Below, one piece after another: positions 7,543-22,673 of a DNA stretch of 64,000 nucleotides. The DNA is taken from contig DASXMH010000087.1 in the NCBI GenBank assembly GCA_036495785.1, positions 176 to 64,175 of the forward strand, read 5' to 3'. The number at the start of each line of letters is the position of its first letter. The first letter of the stretch is position 1. The position numbers and the translations under genes are program-made. A model generated the notes under the pieces. It was not told the origin of the DNA. It saw only the letters and a program-made list of their open reading frames with translations, and searched no databases. Origin of the DNA: Solirubrobacterales bacterium (GTDB lineage Bacteria > Actinomycetota > Thermoleophilia > Solirubrobacterales > 70-9).

Positions 7543-7644
7543 GGAAAACGGCTCTGCATTGTGGATGCAGAGCCGTCGCCCTTCATGCGGCTGAATGGAG
7601 TCGAACCATCACGGGTGTTTCCACCCACAAGGCCCTCAATTGCG
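7543..7644 (-). repeat. left direct repeat: displaced 3' half of tRNA-Leu(GAG) (7586..7639) plus its 3'-flanking hairpin; att-like
   Basis: Positions 7586..7639 are identical to 22588..22641 (54 nt, from the tRNA 3' end to the anticodon loop). The flank 7543..7585 matches 22545..22587 with a few mismatches, and includes the hairpin ggctctgcat/atgcagagcc. There is no 5' half of a tRNA. Confidence 0.85.
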
Positions 7645-7794: not shown

Positions 7795-8643
7795 CTAATG
7801 CCGACTGTCCCACGGGGGAGGGTCCCCCTCTGTTAGAACCTCCTCGGCTGCGGCCAGGGAGTCGACCAGAAGCTCGGTGTGCTCATCGAGGCCGAGGCTG
7901 TCCTCGACCAGGTCGAGTAGCCGCGACTTCAACTCGGGGTAGTCGTCCTCGCCGAGCATCCAGCGTGAGCCCCAGATGACCACTTCGCCAAGGACGGTGG
8001 TCGGCATCTCATCGAGGTCTTCGTGGGCGGGGAGCCAGACGAAGAGTTCGCGCATTGCCGCAGCGATCGCCAGTGCCTGCATTTCCAATGCCTCCTTGCG
8101 TCGGTTGGCATCGAAGAGCAGTATCGCGCCTTGGCATAGCTGCCTGGCGCAGGGCGAGTCCCAGCCGAGGACGCCGCTCATGTCCACCAATCGTTGGATC
8201 AGATCCTCATCGCTCTTGCCGCGTGCGGCCATCGCCAAGACGCAGCCGGAGAGATCCTCGGCGAGATTGATCGACGGCTCCTCGCCGCCCTGGCGGATCG
8301 CCTGTCGGTAGCGGCGCTCGGCCTCGCCGTAGCGGCCGGCGCGGTAGGCGAGGCCCGCTAGGCCACCGAGCGCACTCTGCTGCAGGGCCGTGTCACGATG
8401 CTCCCGACCGATCTCAAGCGCTTGGCGATAGTGGCGATCGGCGTCATCGCTACGTCCTTCGTCGACCCGGACCAGCGCCAAGATCGCGGTGGCTGCTCCT
8501 TCGCCTGCGCGATCCGCACGCGCGTGCGCCATACTCAGAGCTATCTGGAGACGCCTTCCAGCCTCCGTGAAGCGACCCCCCTGGCGCTCCACCTCTCCGA
8601 GGTTCATCTGGGCCTGGAACTCAAGCGCGCGGTCCCCGAGCAT
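7795..8643 (-). CDS. TPR-repeat protein
   Basis: 282 aa with repeated A..Y..AL.....G motifs (GRYGEAERRYRQAI, DDADRHYRQALEI, FTEAGRRLQIAL). Confidence 0.65.
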   Translation of the reverse strand: MLGDRALEFQAQMNLGEVERQGGRFTEAGRRLQIALSMAHARADRAGEGAATAILALVRVDEGRSDDADRHYRQALEIGREHRDTALQQSALGGLAGLAYRAGRYGEAERRYRQAIRQGGEEPSINLAEDLSGCVLAMAARGKSDEDLIQRLVDMSGVLGWDSPCARQLCQGAILLFDANRRKEALEMQALAIAAAMRELFVWLPAHEDLDEMPTTVLGEVVIWGSRWMLGEDDYPELKSRLLDLVEDSLGLDEHTELLVDSLAAAEEVLTEGDPPPWDSRH

Positions 8644-8749: not shown

Positions 8750-9022
8750 ATGACGCTACATCAACCCGAGAGCGAAGTCGGAGTCCGTAAGCTGCACGAT
8801 CGCCTCAGCGAGTACCTGGAGCGAGTGGAGGGGGGCGGCGAGATCGTCGTTACCCGGCGCGGTCGGCCCGTGGCTCGTCTAAGCGGAATCGGTGAGCGGC
8901 CGCTCGACGCTCTCGCGCGCCGTGGGTTGGTGAGGATGCCGCAGGGGGAGCGCTCGTCTCGCTCCGCGCAAGTGAAGGGCGCTGGTTCGGTCTCCGATCT
9001 CGTCTCCGAGCAGCGCGCCTGA
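8750..9022 (+). CDS. Phd/YefM-family type II antitoxin
   Basis: VGVRKLHDRLSEYLERVEGGGEIVVTRRGRPVARL is a typical Phd/YefM N-terminal fold. It lies immediately upstream of a PIN gene. Confidence 0.75.
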   Translation: MTLHQPESEVGVRKLHDRLSEYLERVEGGGEIVVTRRGRPVARLSGIGERPLDALARRGLVRMPQGERSSRSAQVKGAGSVSDLVSEQRA

Positions 9023-9453
9023 CCTTCTACTTCGACACCTCGGCACTGGTCAAGCTCGTTGTTGTCGAGGATGGATCCGAGTTGGCGGCCGAGCTCTGGA
9101 ATAGCGCCCATCCAGCGGCGTCGAGCATCCTTGTCTATCCCGAGGGCCGAGCGGCCCTCGGGGCTGCCCGTCGACTGGATCGGCTCGGGGCGGATGAGCA
9201 CCGCAAGGCACTTGCAGACTTTGAGGAGCTGTATGCGGAGCTGGCTACGGTCGGCGTCGATCAGGAGCTTGCGATTCGGGCTGGCGAGTACGCCGAAGAT
9301 CTAAGCCTCCGCGGCTATGACTCGGTCCACTTGGCGACCGCGCTCGAACTAGGGGATGACGAAGTCGTCCTGGTGACCTGGGACCGAGATCTCGCGCGGG
9401 CGGCGGAAGAAGTTGGCTTGGGTGTCGCCGGCTCCGACGGCGACCCGAATTAG
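9019..9453 (+). CDS. vapC: PIN-domain VapC toxin; start inferred at CTG 9019 overlapping the antitoxin stop (no canonical start lies upstream of the catalytic Asp)
   Basis: The frame is open from 8896. It encodes ...TFYFDTSALVKLVV... (PIN motif 1 Asp at 9034-9036) and ...GYDSVHLATA... The first ATG/GTG/TTG in frame is TTG 9082, which would delete the YFDTS motif. Confidence 0.65.
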   Translation: MTFYFDTSALVKLVVVEDGSELAAELWNSAHPAASSILVYPEGRAALGAARRLDRLGADEHRKALADFEELYAELATVGVDQELAIRAGEYAEDLSLRGYDSVHLATALELGDDEVVLVTWDRDLARAAEEVGLGVAGSDGDPN

Positions 9454-9628: not shown

Positions 9629-9651
9629 ATGCGGCTGAATGGAGTCGAACC
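9629..9651 (-). repeat. internal 23-nt copy of the tRNA-Leu 3' end (att core), fused to unrelated class-II-tRNA-like sequence; not a functional tRNA
   Basis: atgcggctgaatggagtcgaacc is identical to 7585..7607 and 22587..22609. It is preceded by the hairpin gaaaccccc/gggggtttc (9602..9626). The downstream sequence gives a mismatched T-stem, and there is no 5' acceptor strand. Confidence 0.75.
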
Positions 9652-9754: not shown

Positions 9755-9853
9755 GAAGCTGGTTGCGTCGGTTCCCGTCACCGAGGCAGTTCGATGCGGA
9801 CAACGTAGCCGAGGCCGCTTCTAGGGTCACGGACCGTGAATCCCTTTCCTTCG

Positions 9854-10069
9854 ATGAAGGCGAAGCGGCTCCTGGCGGTGCTGGAAAGGCAGCCGCTCAA
9901 TTACGAGGTCGTTCGACGTTCCGGCTCGCATCGCCGGATGGAGTCGCCGGGCCACCCGCCGCTGACCTTCGCCTTTCACGACAAAGCGACGGTCCCGGCA
10001 GGCCTCGTGCGCAAGATCCTCGTCAGGGACGTTGGACTTGATGAGGAAGATGCGCGGAAGCTACTCTGA
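9854..10069 (+). CDS. hicA: HicA-family toxin (mRNA interferase)
   Basis: MKAKRLLAVLERQPLNYEVVRRSGSHRRM... shows the YcfA/HicA pattern (K..L...L......GSH). An alternative GTG start is at 9836. Confidence 0.7.
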   Translation: MKAKRLLAVLERQPLNYEVVRRSGSHRRMESPGHPPLTFAFHDKATVPAGLVRKILVRDVGLDEEDARKLL

Positions 10070-10082
10070 CGTGGAGGATCGA

Positions 10083-10283
10083 ATGGAAACCGTGCGCGTC
10101 ATCTATCACCACGAAGGGGACGGCTGGTGGGCCGAGTCTCCCGATGTCGAGGGCTGGTCCGCCGCTGGCGGCACCTACGCCGAGGTCGCCAAGCTCGCCG
10201 AGGAGGGCATCCCGTTTGCCCTCGGGCGCGACGACGCTGTCCTGGAGCATTTCGTTCCTGTTGGCGAGCGGGTCGCCGCCTAG
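10083..10283 (+). CDS. hicB: HicB-family antitoxin
   Basis: METVRVIYHHEGDGWWAESPDVEGWSAAGGTYAEVAKLAEEGI is HicB/UPF0150-like. It starts 13 nt after the hicA stop. Confidence 0.65.
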   Translation: METVRVIYHHEGDGWWAESPDVEGWSAAGGTYAEVAKLAEEGIPFALGRDDAVLEHFVPVGERVAA

Positions 10284-10403
10284 TCGGGATGACAGCGCCA
10301 TCACGCCGGTGCTCGATCATCCAACGGAGCCCGAACCACTCTGGTCGGCTCGGCCCTCGACTTGGTAAGTAGGCGCCTAGGCGACTGTTAGCTTCGCCGA
10401 GCG

Positions 10404-11789
10404 ATGGACACCCAAGAGTATTGGCACGTCGCGATCAGTCCGTCCTCGCAGAAGCGCGAGGCAGGCGGCTCCGCGGCAATCGCATTAGACCGCGCTCGTG
10501 ACTGGATAGAGGAGCGCATTCTCGATCCACGTCGCCGAGGGGAACCGATCGCAATTGATGGGCAGACCTTCTCTTGGGAGCAGGTCGCAAGCATCAGAAT
10601 TTCGACCTCATCAGCTCCTTCGGAGCGACTTATCGCCCAGATTAAGCGAGAAGACCAAGATTCGGATTTTGTGTTTATTGGCGGTTCCGGTTATCGCGAG
10701 CAGGCGGTCTACGCTGCCAGTGACAAGACCGACGATCTCATATCGGGGCCTCCCGGAAGCCTTTCTTCAGATGGCGACGATTTACCTGGCGCCAAGGTCG
10801 ATCCGCGCGCTGTGATGGTCGTGCATGGTCGAGACGAGGCAGCGAGAAGGGCCTGCTTCGACTTCCTCCGTGCCATCGGATTGAGACCCCTTGAGTGGGG
10901 CGCGCTTGTCTCAGGCACCGGGAAGGCCGCGCCTTATGTGGGCGAGGTGCTCGATCATGCCTTTAGCGTCGCGGCAGCCGTCCTCGTTCTTTTTACGCCC
11001 GATGACGAAGGCCGGCTCCGTGATCCGTTCCACCACGACGACGATCCGTCGCACGAGACGCACCTGACTCCTCAACCACGGCCAAATGTTCTCTTCGAGG
11101 CAGGCATGGCGCTTGGAGTGCATCCCAACCGGACCGTCCTGGTAGAGCATGGGTCAATCCGCCCGTTTAGCGATGTCTACGGCCGGCACGTAGTCCGGGT
11201 AAATGGAACGGACGGACCGTTACGGGATATTGCGAGACGGTTGAAGCAGGCCGGTTGTGCGGTCGATCTCTCCGGGGATGATTGGGCATCGCCGGATCGG
11301 TTCCCGGCCGTTGAAAAGATCGCGCCAACCGCAAGCTCTCCGAAAGCGCTGACCGATTTGGCGGTCTCCAGTCGAGTCGCCGACCTGAATGAGGACACTC
11401 GACGCTGGCTTCAAGACCGAGATCGCGAATTCGAGGCCGAGTCACGCGCCCGTACGGTGGAATTGAGTTCGAACGGGCTGCTCTATAGCGGCGCGCGGTT
11501 GAACGCGGTAGTAATTCTGCGACAGCAGGCGCTTCAGCAGTATCGGGATGAGATCAGCGGTAAGCGCCGGCTCTATCGGGAAATCTGGGAGCAGCTACCG
11601 GACGGCGTCGAAATCCCTCGGTTTGAATTGAGCGATGCCGATCGAGCGATCTTGGGTAAATGGCGCGGACGGGTCGAGGTGGACGGCGTCGGTGAGGCCG
11701 AAGTTGACGACCCGACCGATGCCTCGCGCGAGCCCGACCTTCGACGCTTTGAGATAGAGGGCGACGGGCCAAAGGTAGATCCCGCGTAA
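10404..11789 (+). CDS. TIR-like nucleotide-binding domain protein (Cap12/PycTIR-type, PF10137-like) with unrecognised N- and C-terminal domains
   Basis: The central region reads AVMVVHGRDEAARRACFDFLRAIGLRPLEW...AAVLVLFTPDDEG...PRPNVLFEAGMALG...RTVLV. This follows the family pattern (VF.VHG.D, .TPDD.G, RQNV.FE.G), with the Glu codon at 11097-11099. Confidence 0.7.
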   Translation: MDTQEYWHVAISPSSQKREAGGSAAIALDRARDWIEERILDPRRRGEPIAIDGQTFSWEQVASIRISTSSAPSERLIAQIKREDQDSDFVFIGGSGYREQAVYAASDKTDDLISGPPGSLSSDGDDLPGAKVDPRAVMVVHGRDEAARRACFDFLRAIGLRPLEWGALVSGTGKAAPYVGEVLDHAFSVAAAVLVLFTPDDEGRLRDPFHHDDDPSHETHLTPQPRPNVLFEAGMALGVHPNRTVLVEHGSIRPFSDVYGRHVVRVNGTDGPLRDIARRLKQAGCAVDLSGDDWASPDRFPAVEKIAPTASSPKALTDLAVSSRVADLNEDTRRWLQDRDREFEAESRARTVELSSNGLLYSGARLNAVVILRQQALQQYRDEISGKRRLYREIWEQLPDGVEIPRFELSDADRAILGKWRGRVEVDGVGEAEVDDPTDASREPDLRRFEIEGDGPKVDPA

Positions 11790-12075
11790 GGCGTATGGCC
11801 CGCCTCCGCGGCATCTTTCATTTTCGAGTCCGTGACCTGCTGGTGGCCAACGACCTTCTGGGTGGGAATACCGGGTCTCCGAAGATGGCCTCGACGTTGC
11901 AATCCGCCTTCCCTCACAGGCGTCAGCAAGCGCCACTACGAACCGCGACGAACAGCCGTCAGTCGAGGAGATCGAACGACTGTTTCCGGGATGGCTACCG
12001 GCCGAATTAATAGGCGTCGGAGCCGCCACGAGTCTCGCCCTCGGTTTTGGCCCCCACGATCCGGGCTTTTCAGCG

Positions 12076-12918
12076 GTGCGGCTGCTAAGGATCGAGGTCG
12101 ACTTCGACGGTGACATTCAGGCTGTCGACTACGTAGATCGGCCTCATGAGGGCCCCTTTGTTGACGATCCGGCCGAGATCATGCTTGAAGCGGCGCGGCA
12201 AAAGGGCGAAGGGGTCGTCAACGCATTTATTTCCCTAGTTCGCACCCAGGTCAGACAGTCTTGGTTGGGTCTGGAGGGCGAGCTGATCGAGGGGGTCGGG
12301 GCTGGAACCCTTATCGACCTCGACGCATTCACGTCGATACCGAGATCGATTTCGATAGGTCCGCCGAGTCTGGTGATCCAGAAAATCGGAGCGGACCAGG
12401 TCCTCGACTCTGCCGGCGCCGAAGAGCTGATCGCGAGAGTGCGCTCGGGACAAGGCCCCGATCTTGCCGAGTCCTTACTTCGCGACGCCCTCTTTGTTGC
12501 GCAACATTCGGAGCCAAGCGCCAGCTTGAGCGCTGTGCTGCTCGCGGCAACCGCGGTTGAGTTCAGGATTAAGGAAGTCCTGCGCCGCGCCGCCAATGGT
12601 TCGACTCTGGAGATGTTGGAACTCCTGCTGACGAACCCTCGCGACTGGTCCTTGGCGGCTGCGGCACTCTGGGACCGTCCCAGCGAGATAATCCTGGGAT
12701 CGTCGCTCCGGGACGCGGGCCATCAACTGTGGAAACGCCTGGAGAAACTGATCAAGCGAAGGAACGGACTGGCGCACAAAGGTCGGATTCCATCATCGGA
12801 CGAGATCACGGAAGACGTGAAGACGGCGGTCCGTCTCTTCAAATGGCTCGACCGAGTAGACGGCGCTGGCGGTCTGACGGATGCGGACGCAAAGACTGTC
12901 CCTAGCCCGGGCGAATAG
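12076..12918 (+). CDS. HEPN-motif protein (putative RNase) with unknown N-terminal domain; start uncertain
   Basis: The C-terminal helical region has KLIKRRNGLAHKG, an R-N-x3-H motif at 12760-12777. The frame stays open upstream to 11833 without a canonical start. Confidence 0.55.
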   Translation: MRLLRIEVDFDGDIQAVDYVDRPHEGPFVDDPAEIMLEAARQKGEGVVNAFISLVRTQVRQSWLGLEGELIEGVGAGTLIDLDAFTSIPRSISIGPPSLVIQKIGADQVLDSAGAEELIARVRSGQGPDLAESLLRDALFVAQHSEPSASLSAVLLAATAVEFRIKEVLRRAANGSTLEMLELLLTNPRDWSLAAAALWDRPSEIILGSSLRDAGHQLWKRLEKLIKRRNGLAHKGRIPSSDEITEDVKTAVRLFKWLDRVDGAGGLTDADAKTVPSPGE

Positions 12919-12927
12919 GCTGCCGCG

Positions 12928-13128
12928 ATGCCGACCCACCCCAAGGCCGCGCTCCGCGCATCCGTCCGCGCCGCCCAGGAGCGCTACGAGGCCGAAGCAG
13001 AGGCGGCGCGTCAGGTTCGGCGGGATGCCTTCGCGGAGGCACGCGAGAGCGGCCTGACCCTCAGGGAGATCGGCGAGGCGGTCGGCCTGCATCACACGCG
13101 GGTCGGGCAGATCATCCGCGGTGAGTAG
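12928..13128 (+). CDS. small HTH DNA-binding protein (sigma-70 region-4-like helix-turn-helix)
   Basis: 66 aa ending LTLREIGEAVGLHHTRVGQIIRGE. It starts 9 nt after the HEPN-motif gene. Confidence 0.6.
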   Translation: MPTHPKAALRASVRAAQERYEAEAEAARQVRRDAFAEARESGLTLREIGEAVGLHHTRVGQIIRGE

Positions 13129-13151
13129 TTTGGAGAGTTTTTCTCTCCAAA
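13129..13151 (+). terminator. hairpin terminator after the HTH gene
   Basis: The sequence is tttggagag ttttt ctctccaaa, a 9-bp perfect stem starting 1 nt after the stop codon. Confidence 0.55.
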
Positions 13152-13322
13152 CCTGCTAGCTTCCTGTCCTACAGACAAAGCGTGCCCCCGCGCTGCGTGA
13201 ACAGCCGGGGGCCGGCACGGAAAGGAACCTTCCATGCACCCGCAAGATAGTCCGGGAGCGAGACCCGCGCGGCCTCATCGCCGCAGACCGTTCCCCTCGT
13301 CCTGCGCGACGACCAGAGCAAA

Positions 13323-14833: not shown

Positions 14834-15400
14834 GTGCGAAGGGCTTTGAACTTCTATATCGACTCGTTGGCGAATGAGACAAGTGCTCGGTTTGGCGCGC
14901 TCACGGGCGCGTGGTGGGTCATCTCCTCCGGCATCTCGACCAGCCTCGTCATGGGCGCGGAGGGGGGAGCGGGGACGCGCCCGGCCTTTTACGTGCTAGC
15001 TGCATCTCTTATGCCCGTGCTCTTGTTTACCTACCTCAATGAGCACATGGCGATGATGGCCTCGATCGTCAGAAGGAATAAGCAGCCGAAAGCCTTGATT
15101 GCGCGCGCTGACCAACTGACCGGTGCCGACGCCATCCCCGAGGACCTATTAGCTCCGGTTCGCGCGGCCGTTTTCGGGGCAGATCACCTGTTGAAAACCG
15201 GCTACGCAACGGCCGCTCGCGTGGCAGCGATGTTCACCGTGGCGGAGATCGTGGCACTCGCCGTCGTCGCCAACGGAGCGAGCAGCACTTTCTCCCTCTC
15301 GGCGGTCTGCGTTGGATTCGTCGCGACCGGGTTGGCGGCTGTCCAGTTCAAAGTGGCTCGGTTTCGCTGGCCACACGCGGAATTTGACAGCGCTCGATAG
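14834..15400 (+). CDS. hypothetical integral membrane protein (about 4 TM)
   Basis: 188 aa with hydrophobic segments (WWVISSGISTSLVMG, FYVLAASLMPVLLFTYL, VAAMFTVAEIVALAVVA, LSAVCVGFVATGLAAV). No recognisable motif. Confidence 0.5.
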   Translation: MRRALNFYIDSLANETSARFGALTGAWWVISSGISTSLVMGAEGGAGTRPAFYVLAASLMPVLLFTYLNEHMAMMASIVRRNKQPKALIARADQLTGADAIPEDLLAPVRAAVFGADHLLKTGYATAARVAAMFTVAEIVALAVVANGASSTFSLSAVCVGFVATGLAAVQFKVARFRWPHAEFDSAR

Positions 15401-15411
15401 GACTCCCTGGG

Positions 15412-15810
15412 ATGCCTGACGTGCCCAGCTTTTTCATTCCCGGGGCATCCGATTCGCAGGTTGCTTGGGACTGGTATCTCCAATCTGAAGGTCTGAAAGC
15501 TGAAGAGGCCCAGGCGCTATTTGAAATTGCCTACCTCCACGAGGGGGATCGCCATGAGGTGCGGGTAGGTGAGCCACGTCGTGTCTTCAGACGACAGACC
15601 GGACCGCGCGGCGGCTATCGATCCGATGCCTGCCACCGGCGTTGGTCCTCCGATACCGGCACTGTGGTCACCGCAATCATGCAGACCCCGACCGTAATCC
15701 TTGTCTGGAGTGCTCCGCCGTATGCGCCCTGGGGAAACCCGTCGATGGTCGGGTTGGGTGAGGTCGAGTTCGCGGTCCCATTTGTAAAAGAAGATTCCGC
15801 CAACTCGTAG
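15412..15810 (+). CDS. hypothetical protein
   Basis: 132-aa ORF starting 11 nt after the preceding gene. No recognisable motif. Confidence 0.45.
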   Translation: MPDVPSFFIPGASDSQVAWDWYLQSEGLKAEEAQALFEIAYLHEGDRHEVRVGEPRRVFRRQTGPRGGYRSDACHRRWSSDTGTVVTAIMQTPTVILVWSAPPYAPWGNPSMVGLGEVEFAVPFVKEDSANS

Positions 15811-15837
15811 CTTGCGGCGGATGCGCGGCACCGGGCA

Positions 15838-16947
15838 GTGAAGTCAATACCGCTGGCATTCGTCATTCGCCTGGTGCACCGTGGCTACGTCGTTCTCTTC
15901 GGCGTCGCGCTGGGAGTGATCGGAGGCTTAAACGAATTCTTCAACGGAGCGATCAAGCTCGCGCCTTGGATGTCTTTCGGGATCGTCGGCATCTCACTTG
16001 TGGTGGCGGCGCTGTGGGCGGGCTTCGATCTAGTCCGCGAGCGAGACAGGACCATCGCGATTCTGAGAAGCACTGCGCCGGGGACTGCCGATCCACGCTA
16101 CGCGCCTCTGGGTGACATGCTCGGCGAGTCGACGACCATTGGCGTCGAATTGTCCGACGAACACGCCTTGACTGCGTTGGATGCCTGGGAGGACATCACC
16201 AGGGCGATCGTGGCCGCTGCCTACGGCGAAGGCCAGGCCGCGCACGTTTTCACCCGTGAGCTGAAACGCGGCAAGGTCTACAGCGGCATGGACATTTTCA
16301 AGGCGTCAGTGGAGAGGCCGCCCCCCAAGGCAGAGGTGATCAACAACGTCAACGCGCTGATCGGTCGTATGCCCAGTCTCGTAATCCGGGCCGACTTCGA
16401 TCCCCAGCAGTGGCAGGCGTTCGATGCCGTCGCATACCGAGAATCCAACGCTCGACAGATCATTCACAAGGGTGACCACGCGCAATGGACCTGTCCCTGG
16501 TGCTTCCACGAGCATCAATATTGGGAGGGGCATTGCCAGGGCTGCCATGGGGAACGAGCAGGCGATTTCGTCTATCCAAACGCGATACGTCAAGAACGCC
16601 CCACTGGGGTCCAGGCCTCACCTTTGGAGGAGTGGTTGGAAGGCCGCATCGCCGAGGTGAAGCAGATTCAAAGCCAGCGTGGGGCGCGATCCGACGCTTG
16701 GTTCTACGAGAAGATGGATGCTTGGGACTTTGAGAACGTCTCGCAGATGTACGAAGGCCCGGACGCCCTCGCTCCCGACCTGGTGGATCACTATCGGGAA
16801 GATCCGCGGACTGGCAGCCCGGATGGTCTCAAGGTCGCCCGCGATGGTCGATCTTTGTTGGACGGCGAGCGGGACCGCTACTACGGGCAGCGCATCGGTT
16901 GGATGTACGCCACGCTGAACAAGCTAGTTGACGGCCGCTCTTTCTAG
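15838..16947 (+). CDS. hypothetical membrane-anchored protein with a CxxC...CxxC zinc-ribbon-like motif
   Basis: The N-terminus has 2 TM segments (VVLFGVALGVIGGL, FGIVGISLVVAALWAGF). The Cys/His cluster CPWCFHEHQYWEGHCQGCHG follows. Confidence 0.5.
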   Translation: MKSIPLAFVIRLVHRGYVVLFGVALGVIGGLNEFFNGAIKLAPWMSFGIVGISLVVAALWAGFDLVRERDRTIAILRSTAPGTADPRYAPLGDMLGESTTIGVELSDEHALTALDAWEDITRAIVAAAYGEGQAAHVFTRELKRGKVYSGMDIFKASVERPPPKAEVINNVNALIGRMPSLVIRADFDPQQWQAFDAVAYRESNARQIIHKGDHAQWTCPWCFHEHQYWEGHCQGCHGERAGDFVYPNAIRQERPTGVQASPLEEWLEGRIAEVKQIQSQRGARSDAWFYEKMDAWDFENVSQMYEGPDALAPDLVDHYREDPRTGSPDGLKVARDGRSLLDGERDRYYGQRIGWMYATLNKLVDGRSF

Positions 16948-17134: not shown

Positions 17135-20100
17135 GTGATGTTGTCGATCGGGAAGCTTGGTGCCGGCCAGGAGCACTACTACACCGAGAAGGTCGCCGAA
17201 GGCGCCGAGGACTACTACTCGGGTCGCGGCGAGGCGGAGGGCTACTGGCTCGGTGACGCGGCTCGCGACCTGGGGCTCGACGGCAAGGTCGACGCCGATG
17301 CTCTGAGCGCGATGCTGACCGGCCGCCACCCGGCGAGCGGCGAGCCGCTCGGCCTCCGCCATGTCGCCGGGCGCGGTCCGGTCCCGGGCTTCGATCTCAC
17401 CTTCTCGGCGCCGAAGTCGGTGTCGCTGGCCTGGGCGCTCGGAGAGCATCCGATCTCCGGCGAGGTGATGGAGGCCGTCCGCGTCGCGACCGGCGAGGCC
17501 TTCTCCTACATGGAGCGGGAGGCTTGCTGGACGCGGCGGGGTCACGGCGGCCACGAATTCGTCCACGGCAACGGCTTCATCGGCGCCGCCTATGTCCACC
17601 GCTCCTCGCGCGCCGGCGATCCCCAGCTCCATATACACGCGCTGATCGCCAACGCGACCCGCGGGCCGGACGGCCGCTGGACGCGGCTCTACCACCCCGC
17701 GATCTACGACCACGCGAAGACCGCCGGCTACATCTTCGGGGCGCACCTCCGCTGGGAGCTGACCTGTCGCCTCGGCGCGCGCTGGCGGGAGGTCGTCAAC
17801 GGCATCGCCGAGATCGAGGGCTTCGATCCCGATCACCTCCGGGCCTTCTCGACGCGGCGGGCCGAGATCCTGGCCGCCGCCGCGCCCGATGCTTCCGCCC
17901 GCTCCCGCCAGATCGCCACCCTGGAGACGCGGAAGGCGAAGGACCGCGACCTGGCCGACGAGAGCCTGCGTGAGCGGTGGCGCGTCAAGGCCGAGGAGAT
18001 CGGCCTCTCCCGCGAGGCGATCCGCGATGCCTTCGGCCGCGAACGGGAGATTCCGGCACCGAAGCTGGACGCCTCGGCGGTCGCCGACGCGCTGACCGCC
18101 CGCGCCTCCCACTTCGACCGCCGCGACGTGGTGCAGGCCGTCGCCGGGCAATTGCGCCAAGGCGCCCCGGCCGCCGACGTCGAGGCGCTCGCAGACTCGT
18201 TCCTCGCGCTCGACTCCGTCATCGCGGTGGGCGAGACGGCGAAGGGACCGCGCTTCACCACGGAGCGGATCTGGGAGATCGAGCGGCAGGACCTCGCAGC
18301 CGCTCGGGAGATGGCGGCGGACGGCGGCCACGCCGTCGTCGGCGAGGTCGCCGTCTCCCGCGCCCTCTCGACGCGCGCGACCATCAAGGTCGACCAGCGC
18401 GCGATGGTCGAGCGACTGACGAGCGGCGGCGAGCAGCTCGTCGTAGTGGTCGGCGAGGCCGGCACCGGCAAGACCTTCGCCACCGTCGCCGCGGCCGAGG
18501 CGTGGGGCGGGTCCGACGTCCCCCTCCGGGTCGCGGCTCCGACCTGGCGCGCCGCGAACGTCCTGCGCTCCGAGGGACTCGACGCGACCAGCATCGCGCG
18601 GCTTCTCGCCGAGCTGGACGGTGGGCGCCGACCACTCCCTCGCAGATCCGTCCTGCTGGTCGACGAGGCCGGGATGGTCGATTCGGCGGCGCTCGCCCGG
18701 CTGGTCGACCATGCCCGCGCCGCCGACGCGAAGCTGGTGCTGGTCGGTGACCCGGCGCAGCTCGGCGAGATCGAGGCGGGCGGCCTCTTCGCCTCGATCG
18801 TCGCCCGCACCGAGCCGGTCGTCCTCGACGAGGTGATCCGCCACGAGCACGATCTCGATCGCGAGGGCGCCCGACGCATCCGCGAGGGCCGCGGCGCCGA
18901 GGCGATCGAGGTCTACCGCTCCGCCGAGCGCGTGGTCGTCTCGGCCGACCCTGAGGCGCGCCGGGAGGAGATGACGCGGGACTGGTGCCGCTCCTTCGCC
19001 CAGGGCGAGGACGCGCTGATGATCGCCAAGCGCAACGTCGAGGTAGAGCGGTTGAACGCGCTGGCTCGGGAGGTGATGGAGGCCGAGGGCAGGCTCGGCG
19101 CAGACGAGATCCAGGTCGGCGAGGCCGCGTTCGCCGCCGGCGACCAGGTCATCACCCGCGTCAACGACCACGCCGCCCGGATCTACAACCGCGAACGCTG
19201 GCTGGTCGAGTCCGTCGACCCGGAGGCTCGGGGCCTCGTCCTTGTCGGCGTCGACGCCTCCGGGCGGCGCGCCGTCGTCGACGCCGACTACCTGGGACGC
19301 GCCAACCCCTCGGATGGATCGCCCGCGCTCCAACATGCCTACGCGGCCACCACCTACCAGGCGCAGGGCTCGACGGTCGACCGCGCCTACGTCATGGCCG
19401 ATCCCTCGATGGATCGGCAGGAGCTACACGTCGCCGCCTCGCGGAGTCGGGAGGAGACGTGGTTCTACGCGACGCCGGAGGTCGACCTCGAGCGTGAGGA
19501 GTACGCGCCGCGCTCGACGGGTCGCGAGGGCCTCGCCCACATCGCCGCGGCGGCCGAACGCGACGGCGCCCAGGTCTCCGCCCACGACCAGGTGCTCCGC
19601 TCTCGGCTCGACGGGCTCTCCTCGCCCGACCTGATCCGCCTGCGCGACGAGCTGCGCTCGGAGGCCGGCGCCGAGGCGAGCGCCGAGGACCGGAGAAGGG
19701 CACTCGACGAGCGGATCGCACAAGCTGAGAAGCATCTCGCGGAACTCGACGCCGAGCGTCTGGCGCTCGGCACCGAACCGCGACGACGACGGGCGAGGCA
19801 GGAGTACCGCGAGGCGCTTCGTCCCATCGAGACCCACCAACGCCAGGCATCCAGCCAGTTGGAGCGCATCGAGGATCTTCGGACGGAACTGCCCTCCGTC
19901 AGCCACGATGCCCGCGCCGAGGTGGCGGCGATCGACCGCATCCTCGACCGGCGCGTCGACCTTGCGGTGACCGCTGCCCGGGTCTCTCCCGCCGACTACC
20001 TCGTCGCCGAGCTGGGGGAGAGGCCCGAGGGATCGGCGCGCGTAGCCTGGGACCGGGCGGTGCGGGAGGTCGAGGGCTACCGACAACGGCATGGGCTCCT

Positions 20101-20257
20101 GGACAGAGACACTGCGCTCGGGCCGGAGGCGAAGGATCGGGCGGAGCGGCGCGAGCAGGAGCAGGCGAGGGAGTCGATCCGGCGGGCGCAGCGTGAGTTG
20201 GGGATCGAGCCGGTGCAGACGATCGCGCGTACGCAGTCCTTGGAGATCGGACTGTGA
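17135..20257 (+). CDS. MobF-family relaxase / conjugative helicase (TrwC/TraA-like)
   Basis: The N-terminus reads LSIGKLGAGQEHYYTEKVAEGAEDYYSGRGEAEGYWLG, and the His triad is HRSSRAGDPQLHIHALI. Walker A is VVVGEAGTGKTF, with LLVDEAGMVD, LVLVGDPAQLGEIEAGGLF and AYAATTYQAQGSTVD also present. Confidence 0.85.
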   Translation: MMLSIGKLGAGQEHYYTEKVAEGAEDYYSGRGEAEGYWLGDAARDLGLDGKVDADALSAMLTGRHPASGEPLGLRHVAGRGPVPGFDLTFSAPKSVSLAWALGEHPISGEVMEAVRVATGEAFSYMEREACWTRRGHGGHEFVHGNGFIGAAYVHRSSRAGDPQLHIHALIANATRGPDGRWTRLYHPAIYDHAKTAGYIFGAHLRWELTCRLGARWREVVNGIAEIEGFDPDHLRAFSTRRAEILAAAAPDASARSRQIATLETRKAKDRDLADESLRERWRVKAEEIGLSREAIRDAFGREREIPAPKLDASAVADALTARASHFDRRDVVQAVAGQLRQGAPAADVEALADSFLALDSVIAVGETAKGPRFTTERIWEIERQDLAAAREMAADGGHAVVGEVAVSRALSTRATIKVDQRAMVERLTSGGEQLVVVVGEAGTGKTFATVAAAEAWGGSDVPLRVAAPTWRAANVLRSEGLDATSIARLLAELDGGRRPLPRRSVLLVDEAGMVDSAALARLVDHARAADAKLVLVGDPAQLGEIEAGGLFASIVARTEPVVLDEVIRHEHDLDREGARRIREGRGAEAIEVYRSAERVVVSADPEARREEMTRDWCRSFAQGEDALMIAKRNVEVERLNALAREVMEAEGRLGADEIQVGEAAFAAGDQVITRVNDHAARIYNRERWLVESVDPEARGLVLVGVDASGRRAVVDADYLGRANPSDGSPALQHAYAATTYQAQGSTVDRAYVMADPSMDRQELHVAASRSREETWFYATPEVDLEREEYAPRSTGREGLAHIAAAAERDGAQVSAHDQVLRSRLDGLSSPDLIRLRDELRSEAGAEASAEDRRRALDERIAQAEKHLAELDAERLALGTEPRRRRARQEYREALRPIETHQRQASSQLERIEDLRTELPSVSHDARAEVAAIDRILDRRVDLAVTAARVSPADYLVAELGERPEGSARVAWDRAVREVEGYRQRHGLLDRDTALGPEAKDRAERREQEQARESIRRAQRELGIEPVQTIARTQSLEIGL

Positions 20258-20589: not shown

Positions 20590-20687
20590 AATGGCCTTAA
20601 AGCAGTCGCGCAATGTTGCGCACTCGGCGCCGAGTTTGCAGACCCGGCGCCGAGCGCGACTTCATCAGCTACGCAGGAGGTAGCCAG

Positions 20688-21890
20688 ATGCCAACCGAGG
20701 GTAGAGCTCGGCGTCCGCACAAGTCCGGGTCCGTCCGTCCGATGGGCCGCCAATGGGAAGGTCGGTTCTATCCCGACACCGGCCCGCGCGTCGAGAAGCT
20801 GCTCGGCGTTCGCAAGGAAGTCGACCCCGACAAGGGGATCAGCGAAACCGAGGCGTTCGCCAAGCTCGTGAAGATCATGGGGACCTACGAGGCCCCTAAG
20901 ACCAGAGGCAAGGTCACGTTCTCCGAGGTCGTTCCGAGGTTCAAGGCGCACAAAGAAGCGAAGAACCGGGAGGACACGACGATGGCGGCGATCGACGTGG
21001 CGATCCGTTGTCATCTTGAGCCGGAGTTCGGCCCGCGGTACCTGGACGAGATCGACTCCGACGACTTCGAGGCCTGGATGGCGAAGGAGTTGAAGAAGTA
21101 CAGCCCCAAGAGCGTCAAGAACTGGCGCTCGGTGGCCAACTCGCTCTGGGAGTTCGCGGTGAAGAAAAAGATGGTGTCGGTGAACGTCGTCGCCCAGACC
21201 GAGGCGCCCTACCGTCCCGAGGAAGGAAAAGATCGACGTGATGACGTGGGCGGACATCGTCGCCGTCCGCGACGCCTTTCCCGACACTCCGATGGGGCGG
21301 CTGAATTCGTTGGCCACGCTCGTCGCCTGCCGCTGCGGTCTTCGCGAGTCGGAAATCATCGCCCTGAAGTGGTCGGAGGTCATGTGGGACACGGGCTGGC
21401 TTAGGGTGATCGAGGGCCACGTCCGTGGAAAGACGAAACTGCCGAAGGGCAAAAAGGGTCGGATCACCCCGATGCCGGACATCGTGAAGACCGCGCTCCT
21501 GGCCCATGCAAGACAACGAAATTCGACAAGCCCGACGATCTCGTCTTCGCGCATCCGGTGGACGGGACCGAGCTGAATGCCTCCGCGCTGAACGAAAGGT
21601 TCAAGGAGGCCGTCGTCCGGGCCGGGATCAGGCCGACCGAGCTACGCGAATACAAAAAGCGCCACGGCGGCCACGAAATGCGGGACTACGTCGGGCTTTC
21701 ATTTCACGACTGCCGCCACGCCTGGGCCTCCTGGTGTCTGTCCAATGGCCAGGCGCCGGCAAACGTCCAGAAGTGGGGCGGGTGGGAGGACGCGAAGACG
21801 ATGGCGATCTACGACCACTTCATCCCGAGCGGCTTTGAGGTCGACCAGTTGAACGCGGCCGTCGAGCGGGAAACAGCCGTGACGCTCTAG
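20688..21890 (+). pseudogene. tyrosine recombinase (integrase) broken by two compensating frameshifts
   Basis: ATG 20688 lies behind gcaggagg. The N-terminal domain is in frame 0 to about 21220. The segment EKIDVMTWADIVAV...CGLRESEIIALKWSEV...PMPDIVKTALLAH is in frame +1. KFDKPDDLVFAHP...SFHDCRHAWAS...TMAIYDH is back in frame 0. The catalytic R, HxxR and Y are all present. Confidence 0.8.
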
Positions 21891-22525: not shown

Positions 22526-22587
22526 GTCTCTTGGCTTCCTAAACGGAAAACGGCTCCACATCAGGGATGCAGAGCCGTCGTCCTTCA

Positions 22588-22673
<86 letters not shown>

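Follow-up and report, generated by a model that had tools for sequence, protein, structure and literature searches.

A Cap12-type TIR gene and a frameshifted HEPN-family gene: probably two independent modules stacked in a decaying tRNA-Leu integrative element

Three consecutive genes, denoted A, B and C, lie on the forward strand between positions 10404 and 13128 of a 64,000-nucleotide stretch of Solirubrobacterales DNA (GenBank assembly GCA_036495785.1, contig DASXMH010000087.1), to which we refer as the window. They had been put forward, from the letters of the sequence, as a single undescribed defence cassette composed of a TIR-like protein, a protein with the HEPN ribonuclease (RNase) signature and a small helix-turn-helix (HTH) protein. 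We propose instead, with a probability of roughly 0.7, that A and B are two independent single-gene modules stacked in the cargo slot of a tRNA-Leu integrative mobilisable element, which is now decaying. A, B and C are not regarded as one system because A and B do not co-occur elsewhere, B is frameshifted and C belongs to the backbone of the element, and the apparent TIR + HEPN + HTH "system" is probably an accident of cargo stacking. By analogy with characterized proteins, A is most likely an autonomous NADase acting by abortive infection, while members of the B family are most likely autonomous sensor-RNases. Two genes with toxic domains that adjoin in a genomic island do not constitute a system unless their pairing recurs; here it does not, and a false lead is removed. 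The interest of the locus rests mainly on the uncatalogued HEPN family to which B belongs.

Results and Discussion

A and B do not recur as a pair

Co-occurrence was assessed by searching six-frame open reading frames (ORFs) with hidden Markov models (HMMs) of both families. Apart from the window and L001, the B loci searched number 23 and comprise four from metagenomes, 17 from species-representative genomes of Actinomycetota, Acidobacteriota and Chloroflexota, the locus L110 and the within-clade locus L003; the corresponding A loci number 85, namely 80 from metagenomes and the loci L002, L111, L112, L113 and L114. An A-type gene is present in 0/23 of the former and a B-type gene in 0/85 of the latter, so that the gene neighbourhood on which the idea of a single cassette depended is not conserved. 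The only other locus with A and B adjacent is L001, in which A is 85% and B 84% identical to the genes in the window, the spacing is the same 5 nt and B is intact, with 358 aa.

The two genes are also found apart among close relatives. In L003 (6965-9077) B is intact, but upstream of it only the last 37 codons of A remain and an unrelated gene of 140 aa stands in the place of A. The L003 locus is syntenic with L001 and lies right behind dnaG and a tRNA-Asn. In L110, B is 71% identical and the upstream gene is unrelated to A, while L002 and L112-L114 carry A homologues with the same C-terminal domain and without B. The window, too, has an intact A beside a broken B. We also considered whether A and B might be related families, but a profile-profile comparison revealed no relationship.

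What the window and L001 do have in common is a cargo block of 2.5 kb (10370..12890, forward strand, as are all features below unless stated otherwise), with 84.7% DNA identity to positions 254-2775 of L001; it is the sole stretch common to both loci, and no homology was found beyond its limits. The insertion point lies just upstream of the backbone gene C, and the final codons of B together with its stop codon derive from the junction between block and backbone. No flanking repeats or RNA genes were found that would delimit the block, and a promoter and terminator scan called no sigma-70-type promoter. The GC content is 0.61-0.62 in the A-B-C region versus about 0.70 outside, in agreement with the lower GC content that had been noted initially. 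The sequence of the window is identical to that of one public Solirubrobacterales contig from a metagenome-assembled genome (MAG) and of two further public assemblies of this DNA.

The existence of such a block might indicate that A and B are a real two-gene system of this Solirubrobacterales lineage, an alternative that we consider improbable. Two modes of action could be envisaged: either, as in Thoeris, the TIR protein would sense, and a signal derived from ADP-ribose or a lowered level of nicotinamide adenine dinucleotide (NAD+) would switch on the HEPN domain via the N-terminal domain of B, or B would sense and A would execute. Several observations do weigh against independent modules: the clade with adjacent A and B looks operon-like, with the 5-nt spacing kept in both L001 and the window; the 2.5-kb block is shared as a unit, about 85% identical, by two loci whose genomic contexts differ; and both genes are under purifying selection, with ratios of nonsynonymous to synonymous substitution rates (dN/dS) of 0.14 for A (versus L001) and 0.22-0.27 for B. 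Besides, the neighbourhoods of the B family are only partly defence-like, the PADLOC candidate PDC-S35, to which A belongs, is a computational candidate only, and the triggers that we propose for the two proteins are guesses, because no recognisable relatives exist for either terminal domain of A or for that at the N-terminus of B. A recent survey of TIR proteins (10.64898/2025.12.03.692087) predicts RNase effectors beside signalling TIRs, as the two-gene alternative would have it; the same survey, however, set stand-alone TIRs aside and makes no mention of HEPN. On the other hand, the adjacency comes from a single clade at >=84% identity and is not accompanied by any co-occurrence at the 23 B loci and 85 A loci, B persists with A deleted (L003) just as A persists in the window with B frameshifted, B is missing beside A homologues that share the C-terminal domain, and TIRs of the PF10137 type are known as NAD+-depleting effectors. 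A functional coupling of A and B restricted to Solirubrobacterales, through a signal or within a complex, with the copy in the window recently inactivated and that in L001 intact, appears very improbable to us; such a coupled TIR-HEPN pair would be outside the named systems.

The arrangement resembles Thoeris in that a putative effector gene, with a toxic domain, comes immediately after the TIR gene A. It differs from Thoeris, however, in that the pairing is not conserved at the loci counted above, the TIR of A is of the effector-type PF10137 family, and known signal-binding domains such as SLOG or Macro are absent.

Gene A encodes a Cap12/PycTIR-type TIR protein

Returning to the independent modules, gene A (10404..11789) is intact and encodes a protein of 461 aa with an N-terminal domain, a TIR domain of the Cap12/PycTIR type and a coiled-coil C-terminal domain. 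The ORF and the motifs VMVVHGRD, FLRAIGLRP, LVLFTPDDEG and RPNVLFEAGMALG, the conserved glutamate included, are found exactly at the positions given in the original prediction, and the family assignment made there is borne out. The Pfam family PF10137 (CAP12/Pycsar TIR) matches residues 137-267 with E=3e-23 and 82.5 bits, against a gathering cut-off of 24.7, over HMM positions 2-118 of 119; it is the sole Pfam match of A at E<=0.1, and no STING, SAVED or cyclic nucleotide monophosphate (cNMP)-binding domain was detected. An AlphaFold2 (AF2) model built on 120 homologues has a predicted local distance difference test score (pLDDT) of 92, and the four top matches of this model in a Foldseek search of the PDB are to TIR-STING (9lmq/9lmr), with probability 1.00 and E=1.5e-3 to 6e-3.

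The TIR-like domain, delimited by the PF10137 match, the Foldseek results and the invariant residues, spans residues 133-300 (10800..11303). It carries the active-site pattern R-x-N-x3-E, comprising R226 (11079-11081), N228 (11085-11087) and E232 (11097-11099), and these three residues as well as D257 (11172-11174) are invariant across the 120 homologues. The spacing of R226, N228 and E232 is the same as that of R78, N80 and the catalytic E84 in the NADase pocket of SfSTING, which is completed on filament formation by D110 of a partner TIR (PMC9402430). The equivalence to the catalytic residues of SfSTING is based on the motif pattern and not on a residue-level structural alignment, because PDB sequence searches with profiles of A and of its TIR domain gave nothing significant. 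A can therefore be counted as a genuine TIR protein of the Cap12/PycTIR type. The DUF4062 "Swarozyc" TIR-like NADases were also considered as its relatives and were rejected as a different family.

Five PDC-S35 models of PADLOC, a library that was used without curated cut-offs, match A, the best with E=5.1e-16 over residues 9-289 and positions 5-274 of 278. Since the match extends across the whole model, the combination of the N-terminal domain with the TIR is an architecture already catalogued as a candidate, and the epithet "undescribed" does not hold for this part of the proposed cassette. The N-terminal domain (residues 1-112, 10404..10739), a candidate sensor, has an alpha/beta fold, lies within the PDC-S35 architecture and has no Pfam match. 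The C-terminal domain (residues 318-461, 11355..11786) consists of a long helical hairpin, with helices 318-356 and 363-396 in the AF2 model, and a small alpha/beta unit. Only some members of the family have this C-terminal domain (P0002-P0010, P0019, P0026, P0037 and P0092), joined to one or the other of two N-terminal domains that are unrelated: P0006-P0010, P0026 and P0037 (alignment A3) have the TIR and C-terminal domain of A with a wholly different N-terminal domain. Such domain swapping is consistent with a variable sensor module, and the swappable N- and C-terminal domains of the PDC-S35 TIR family offer handles on what triggers stand-alone NADases.

A thus belongs to PF10137 and to the PDC-S35 candidate, and differs from the latter by a C-terminal addition of about 145 aa. 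The family has more than 1000 homologues, mostly of about 300 aa and composed of the N-terminal domain and the TIR, and like A it appears stand-alone: ORF clustering revealed no conserved neighbour, as no neighbour family occurs in more than 5/80 loci. The literature that could be searched yielded no experimental study of PDC-S35. The neighbours include type I restriction-modification (R-M) genes, PDC-S02, PDC-S11, Schlafen-like and DUF4238 genes, which supports a defence context. In L112 (3871-6329) an A homologue adjoins a DUF4238 protein, and on a second contig (that of P0007) a homologue lies near ThiF and multi-ubiquitin genes; the DUF4238, ThiF and multi-ubiquitin genes are further defence-type neighbours of the A family. 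The TIR domain of A is also carried by actinobacterial plasmids, where its annotation is only "nucleotide-binding protein". Distant homologues, 25-28% identical to A and with the same architecture of N-terminal domain and TIR, have been found on the 6.7-kb Acinetobacter haemolyticus plasmid pAhaemAN59a (L111) and in OR850936.1, an unannotated 4.6-kb sequence filed as a Salmonella phage.

By profile, fold and the R-x-N-x3-E pattern shared with SfSTING, A falls in the same TIR subfamily as Cap12, the TIR-STING effector of cyclic-oligonucleotide-based antiphage signalling systems (CBASS), and PycTIR, the effector of Pycsar, and the same chemistry would be expected of it, namely hydrolysis of NAD+ switched on by oligomerisation. 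It differs from both in its flanking domains, none of which is a STING, SAVED or cNMP-binding domain, and in its surroundings: as stated in the original prediction, no cyclase, SLOG, SIR2 or ThsA gene is annotated in the island, according to Pfam, PADLOC and the public annotation. Since there is neither a cyclase nor a sensing domain, A cannot be triggered by a nucleotide of the CBASS or Pycsar type that stems from a gene next to it. Lacking a cyclase, a sensing domain and a conserved partner, A is not a component of CBASS, Pycsar or Thoeris.

We propose that A acts as a self-contained sensor-effector of the PDC-S35 or Cap12-type TIR kind. In analogy to TIR-STING, its TIR domains would pack together upon oligomerisation and hydrolyse NAD+, with one or both of its flanking domains (the N-terminal and the coiled-coil C-terminal one) supplying the sensing trigger or the assembly interface. 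The loss of NAD+ would then stop phage replication by abortive infection, and no second-messenger partner would be required.

Gene B is frameshifted in the window

Gene B had originally been described as a gene of at least 280 aa starting at 12076. The ATG with which it actually begins lies at 11795, only 5 nt past the stop codon of A, so that the apparent gap of 287 nt between the two genes is in fact the 5' part of B itself, and the 280-aa ORF is the tail of a frameshifted gene (11795..12918), without about the first 98 residues. Both tblastn and DNA alignment place codons 1-24 in one frame and the remainder, from 11860, in another; with the intact homologues P0122-P0125 as tblastn queries, residues 1-24 of B match in one frame and residues 23-357 in the other. 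The frameshift site is at 11864..11866, where GGG in the window is opposed to GGGG in L001 and GCGG in L003, indicating a 1-nt deletion. The suspicion of decay voiced in the original prediction is thus justified, and, as read from the sequence, B in this genome is probably dead. Programmed frameshifting was considered and rejected, as GGT-GGG-A is no slippery heptamer and the relatives simply have one extra base.

The remaining 335 codons of B are open and 83% identical to the intact homologues, which are 329-366 aa long. With the rest of the gene undamaged, the lesion is recent or, less likely, an artefact. The latter explanation, according to which the frameshift arises from an assembly or consensus error or a minority variant and B is intact and active in the living population, is doubtful, yet it is the one that we would entertain most readily among the alternatives, and it would leave the remainder of our interpretation in place. 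A single lesion in a short G-run is what a sequencing artefact could look like, and the constraint on the 335 codons (dN/dS 0.22-0.24) agrees with it. However, the identical sequence is found in three public assemblies, though these probably derive from the same reads, and the integrase of the element is broken at two further points whereas the 1040-aa TrwC protein and the 461-aa A are intact, a pattern better explained by real decay than by random indel errors. Several species-representative genomes (L014, L017, L018, L022, L023 and L025) have B-family genes with split or partial HMM matches, which suggests frequent frameshifts or truncations; several of these genomes are long-read MAGs, so that sequencing error is possible there.

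B belongs to an uncatalogued HEPN family

The HEPN domain of B occupies 12406..12918, with an E-x3-K motif at 12559-12573 and the R-N-x3-H signature RNGLAH at 12760-12777, where it had been predicted. Among 100 members of the family, E256, R323 and N324 are invariant, while K260 and H328 are conserved in >=90%. According to Anantharaman et al. (PMC3710099), the hallmarks of HEPN domains are an Rx4-6H motif with a polar residue after the arginine, an upstream E-x3-[KR] motif, and a position of the former where the penultimate core helix ends and the loop leading to the last helix is about to start. All three are found in B: in the AF2 model (pLDDT 86, predicted template modelling score, pTM, 0.87) R-N-x3-H closes the helix 310-329, which is followed by a loop and the helix 335-357, and E-x3-K is located on the earlier helix 241-266.

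Matches of B to described families are all weak. Its best Pfam match is HEPN_RiboL-PSP, with 20.9 bits, which is below the cut-off of 28.4; this family is weakly matched by 15/100 members, and nearly all other sub-threshold matches are to HEPN-type families. Foldseek searches against the PDB and BFVD gave nothing significant, with weak matches only (Csm6, HepT and 1wwp, E about 1) and no match whatever for the beta-rich N-terminal half, and a search of PDB sequences with the B profile was likewise without a significant result. A faint match (E=1.5) was obtained to the motif region of Ec2ApeA. By its motifs, therefore, B is a member of the HEPN superfamily that falls in no described family; the family is absent from Pfam, NCBIfam and PADLOC.

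The family is well populated: an exhaustive profile search retrieved 886 representatives at E<=1e-3 and 270 at E<=1e-30, corresponding to at least 886 clusters at 50% identity, and its members occur in Actinomycetota, Acidobacteriota and Chloroflexota. Intact relatives of B are about 340-360 aa long and consist of a beta-rich N-terminal domain and the C-terminal HEPN domain. No B was found in the phage and plasmid collections. The 17 loci from species-representative genomes came from a scan with a 10-sequence alignment, while a scan of the genome collection with the alignment of close homologues (A2) returned no relatives of B. The B genes at L003-L027 often failed a filter based on GC content at third codon positions (GC3) that was tuned to the host contig, which suggests atypical codon composition and recent horizontal acquisition.

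ORF clustering of the 23 loci revealed no conserved neighbour of B; the genes found there, including IS110 insertion sequence (IS), PIN, RmrA, IetA and type IIG R-M genes, are mixed with housekeeping genes. In being stand-alone and combining a non-catalytic N-terminal part with a C-terminal HEPN domain that carries R-N-x3-H, the family is similar to HepS (PMC13043305), ApeA and DARNA. It is different from them in that no significant similarity of sequence or structure extends beyond the motif, the beta-rich N-terminal domain is unmatched in PDB and BFVD, and the copy in the window is frameshifted. The HEPN RNase motif is shared also with the HepT-MntA (HEPN-MNT) type VII toxin-antitoxin system, but no MNT nucleotidyltransferase is present in the window or conserved at the 23 B loci, and B is three times larger and has its own N-terminal domain.

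In our model, a B-family protein would be a stand-alone sensor-RNase of about 340 aa, whose beta-rich N-terminal domain, the putative sensor, would keep the HEPN site inactive until triggered; the HEPN domain would then cut RNA or tRNA, in analogy to HepS and ApeA. We consider the family a reasonable candidate for a new sensor-RNase encoded by a single gene, akin to HepS and ApeA.

Gene C and the integrative element

Gene C (12928..13128), 9 nt past B, encodes the 66-aa protein described originally, a probable HTH protein whose HTH matches are weak (HTH_3 with E=0.003, below the cut-off). Its homologues form more than 100 clusters of proteins of 65-69 aa. In the related elements L108 and L109, C is found at the same place, ahead of XRE genes, a relaxase and a recombinase, while the genes upstream of it are entirely different and include neither A nor B. 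Since the A-B block ends at 12890, backbone DNA homology to L108 and L109 begins at 12907-12912 and C is retained next to other cargo, C lies outside the block and belongs to the backbone of the element, of which it may be a small regulator. The possibility that C is an antitoxin or regulator of B was rejected in view of where the block ends and of the fact that C is conserved in the absence of B. Downstream of C a hairpin is indeed present (13124..13157, with a core stem of 9 bp at 13131-13153, -18.8 kcal/mol, z=-4.6), but its original designation as a terminator is not backed by a T-run, and the terminator scan made no call there.

The element is inserted at a tRNA-Leu(GAG) gene (22588..22673, reverse strand), identified by ARAGORN and Rfam. 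The outer left end of the island is marked by an attachment (att)-type direct repeat, a 77-nt copy of the 3' part of tRNA-Leu (7563..7639, 98.7% identical to 22565-22641), and a 23-nt copy (9629..9651, 100% identical to 22587-22609) probably represents the left end of an inner element with HicAB, A, B and C. The island contains VapBC, HicAB, A, B, C, XRE-type regulators, a TrwC relaxase, an HTH_17 protein and a tyrosine integrase. The TrwC-type relaxase/helicase (17135..20257) is an intact ORF of 1040 aa, assigned from the Pfam annotation of the identical public gene. The tyrosine integrase is a pseudogene distributed over three reading frames (20613..21890): the SAM-like domain lies in the ORF 20613-21404, and positions 19-76 and 103-167 of the catalytic HMM in the ORFs 21238-21576 and 21558-21890, respectively. 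The split was located by Pfam mapping, the integrase of L108 being too divergent from that in the window to place the breaks. Together with the frameshift in B, the split integrase suggests that the island is immobilised and decaying.

Directly upstream of the region of gene A, as had been noted, there is a HicA toxin gene (9836..10069, Pfam PF07927, E=3.7e-10), followed by a HicB-like partner ORF (10032..10283) that is assigned by its position, without a profile match, and that is called in the public assemblies as a 66-aa gene at 10083-10283. This vicinity raises the question of whether one or both of A and B serve not against viruses but as addiction or toxin modules by which the mobile element is stabilised, in the manner of VapBC and HicAB. 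Two toxin-antitoxin pairs directly beside A and B in the cargo region, the prevalence of HEPN and TIR among toxin domains (PMC3710099), and the mixture of IS elements, PIN genes and housekeeping genes around the B family all point in that direction. Nevertheless, neither family has a conserved antitoxin-like partner, A matches a candidate model that was derived from defence islands, and the neighbours of the A family include R-M and other defence candidates; we therefore regard addiction as an unlikely role. The defence function deduced originally from the surroundings is plausible to the extent that the context is that of defence-type or mobile-element cargo.

The stacking of A and B as independent cargo, which we prefer, draws attention to the slot that holds them, between the att site and gene C, which this family of elements offers as a defined place to mine for further candidates. 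In L108 (7196-8927) and L109 (4233-8991) the slot upstream of C is filled by mostly unannotated genes, with one weak HipA-like match, and it behaves like a cargo hotspot. Further to the left, the 77-nt and 23-nt repeats bracket a TPR protein gene (7795-8643, reverse strand) and the VapBC pair (8750-9453), and the segment 7563-9651 resembles what would be left of a second element in tandem. Finally, between the XRE regulators and the relaxase (14834-16947) there are three consecutive genes without a match in Pfam, NCBIfam or PADLOC, which encode a membrane-like protein of 188 aa, a protein of 132 aa and a protein of 369 aa with Cys-rich motifs.

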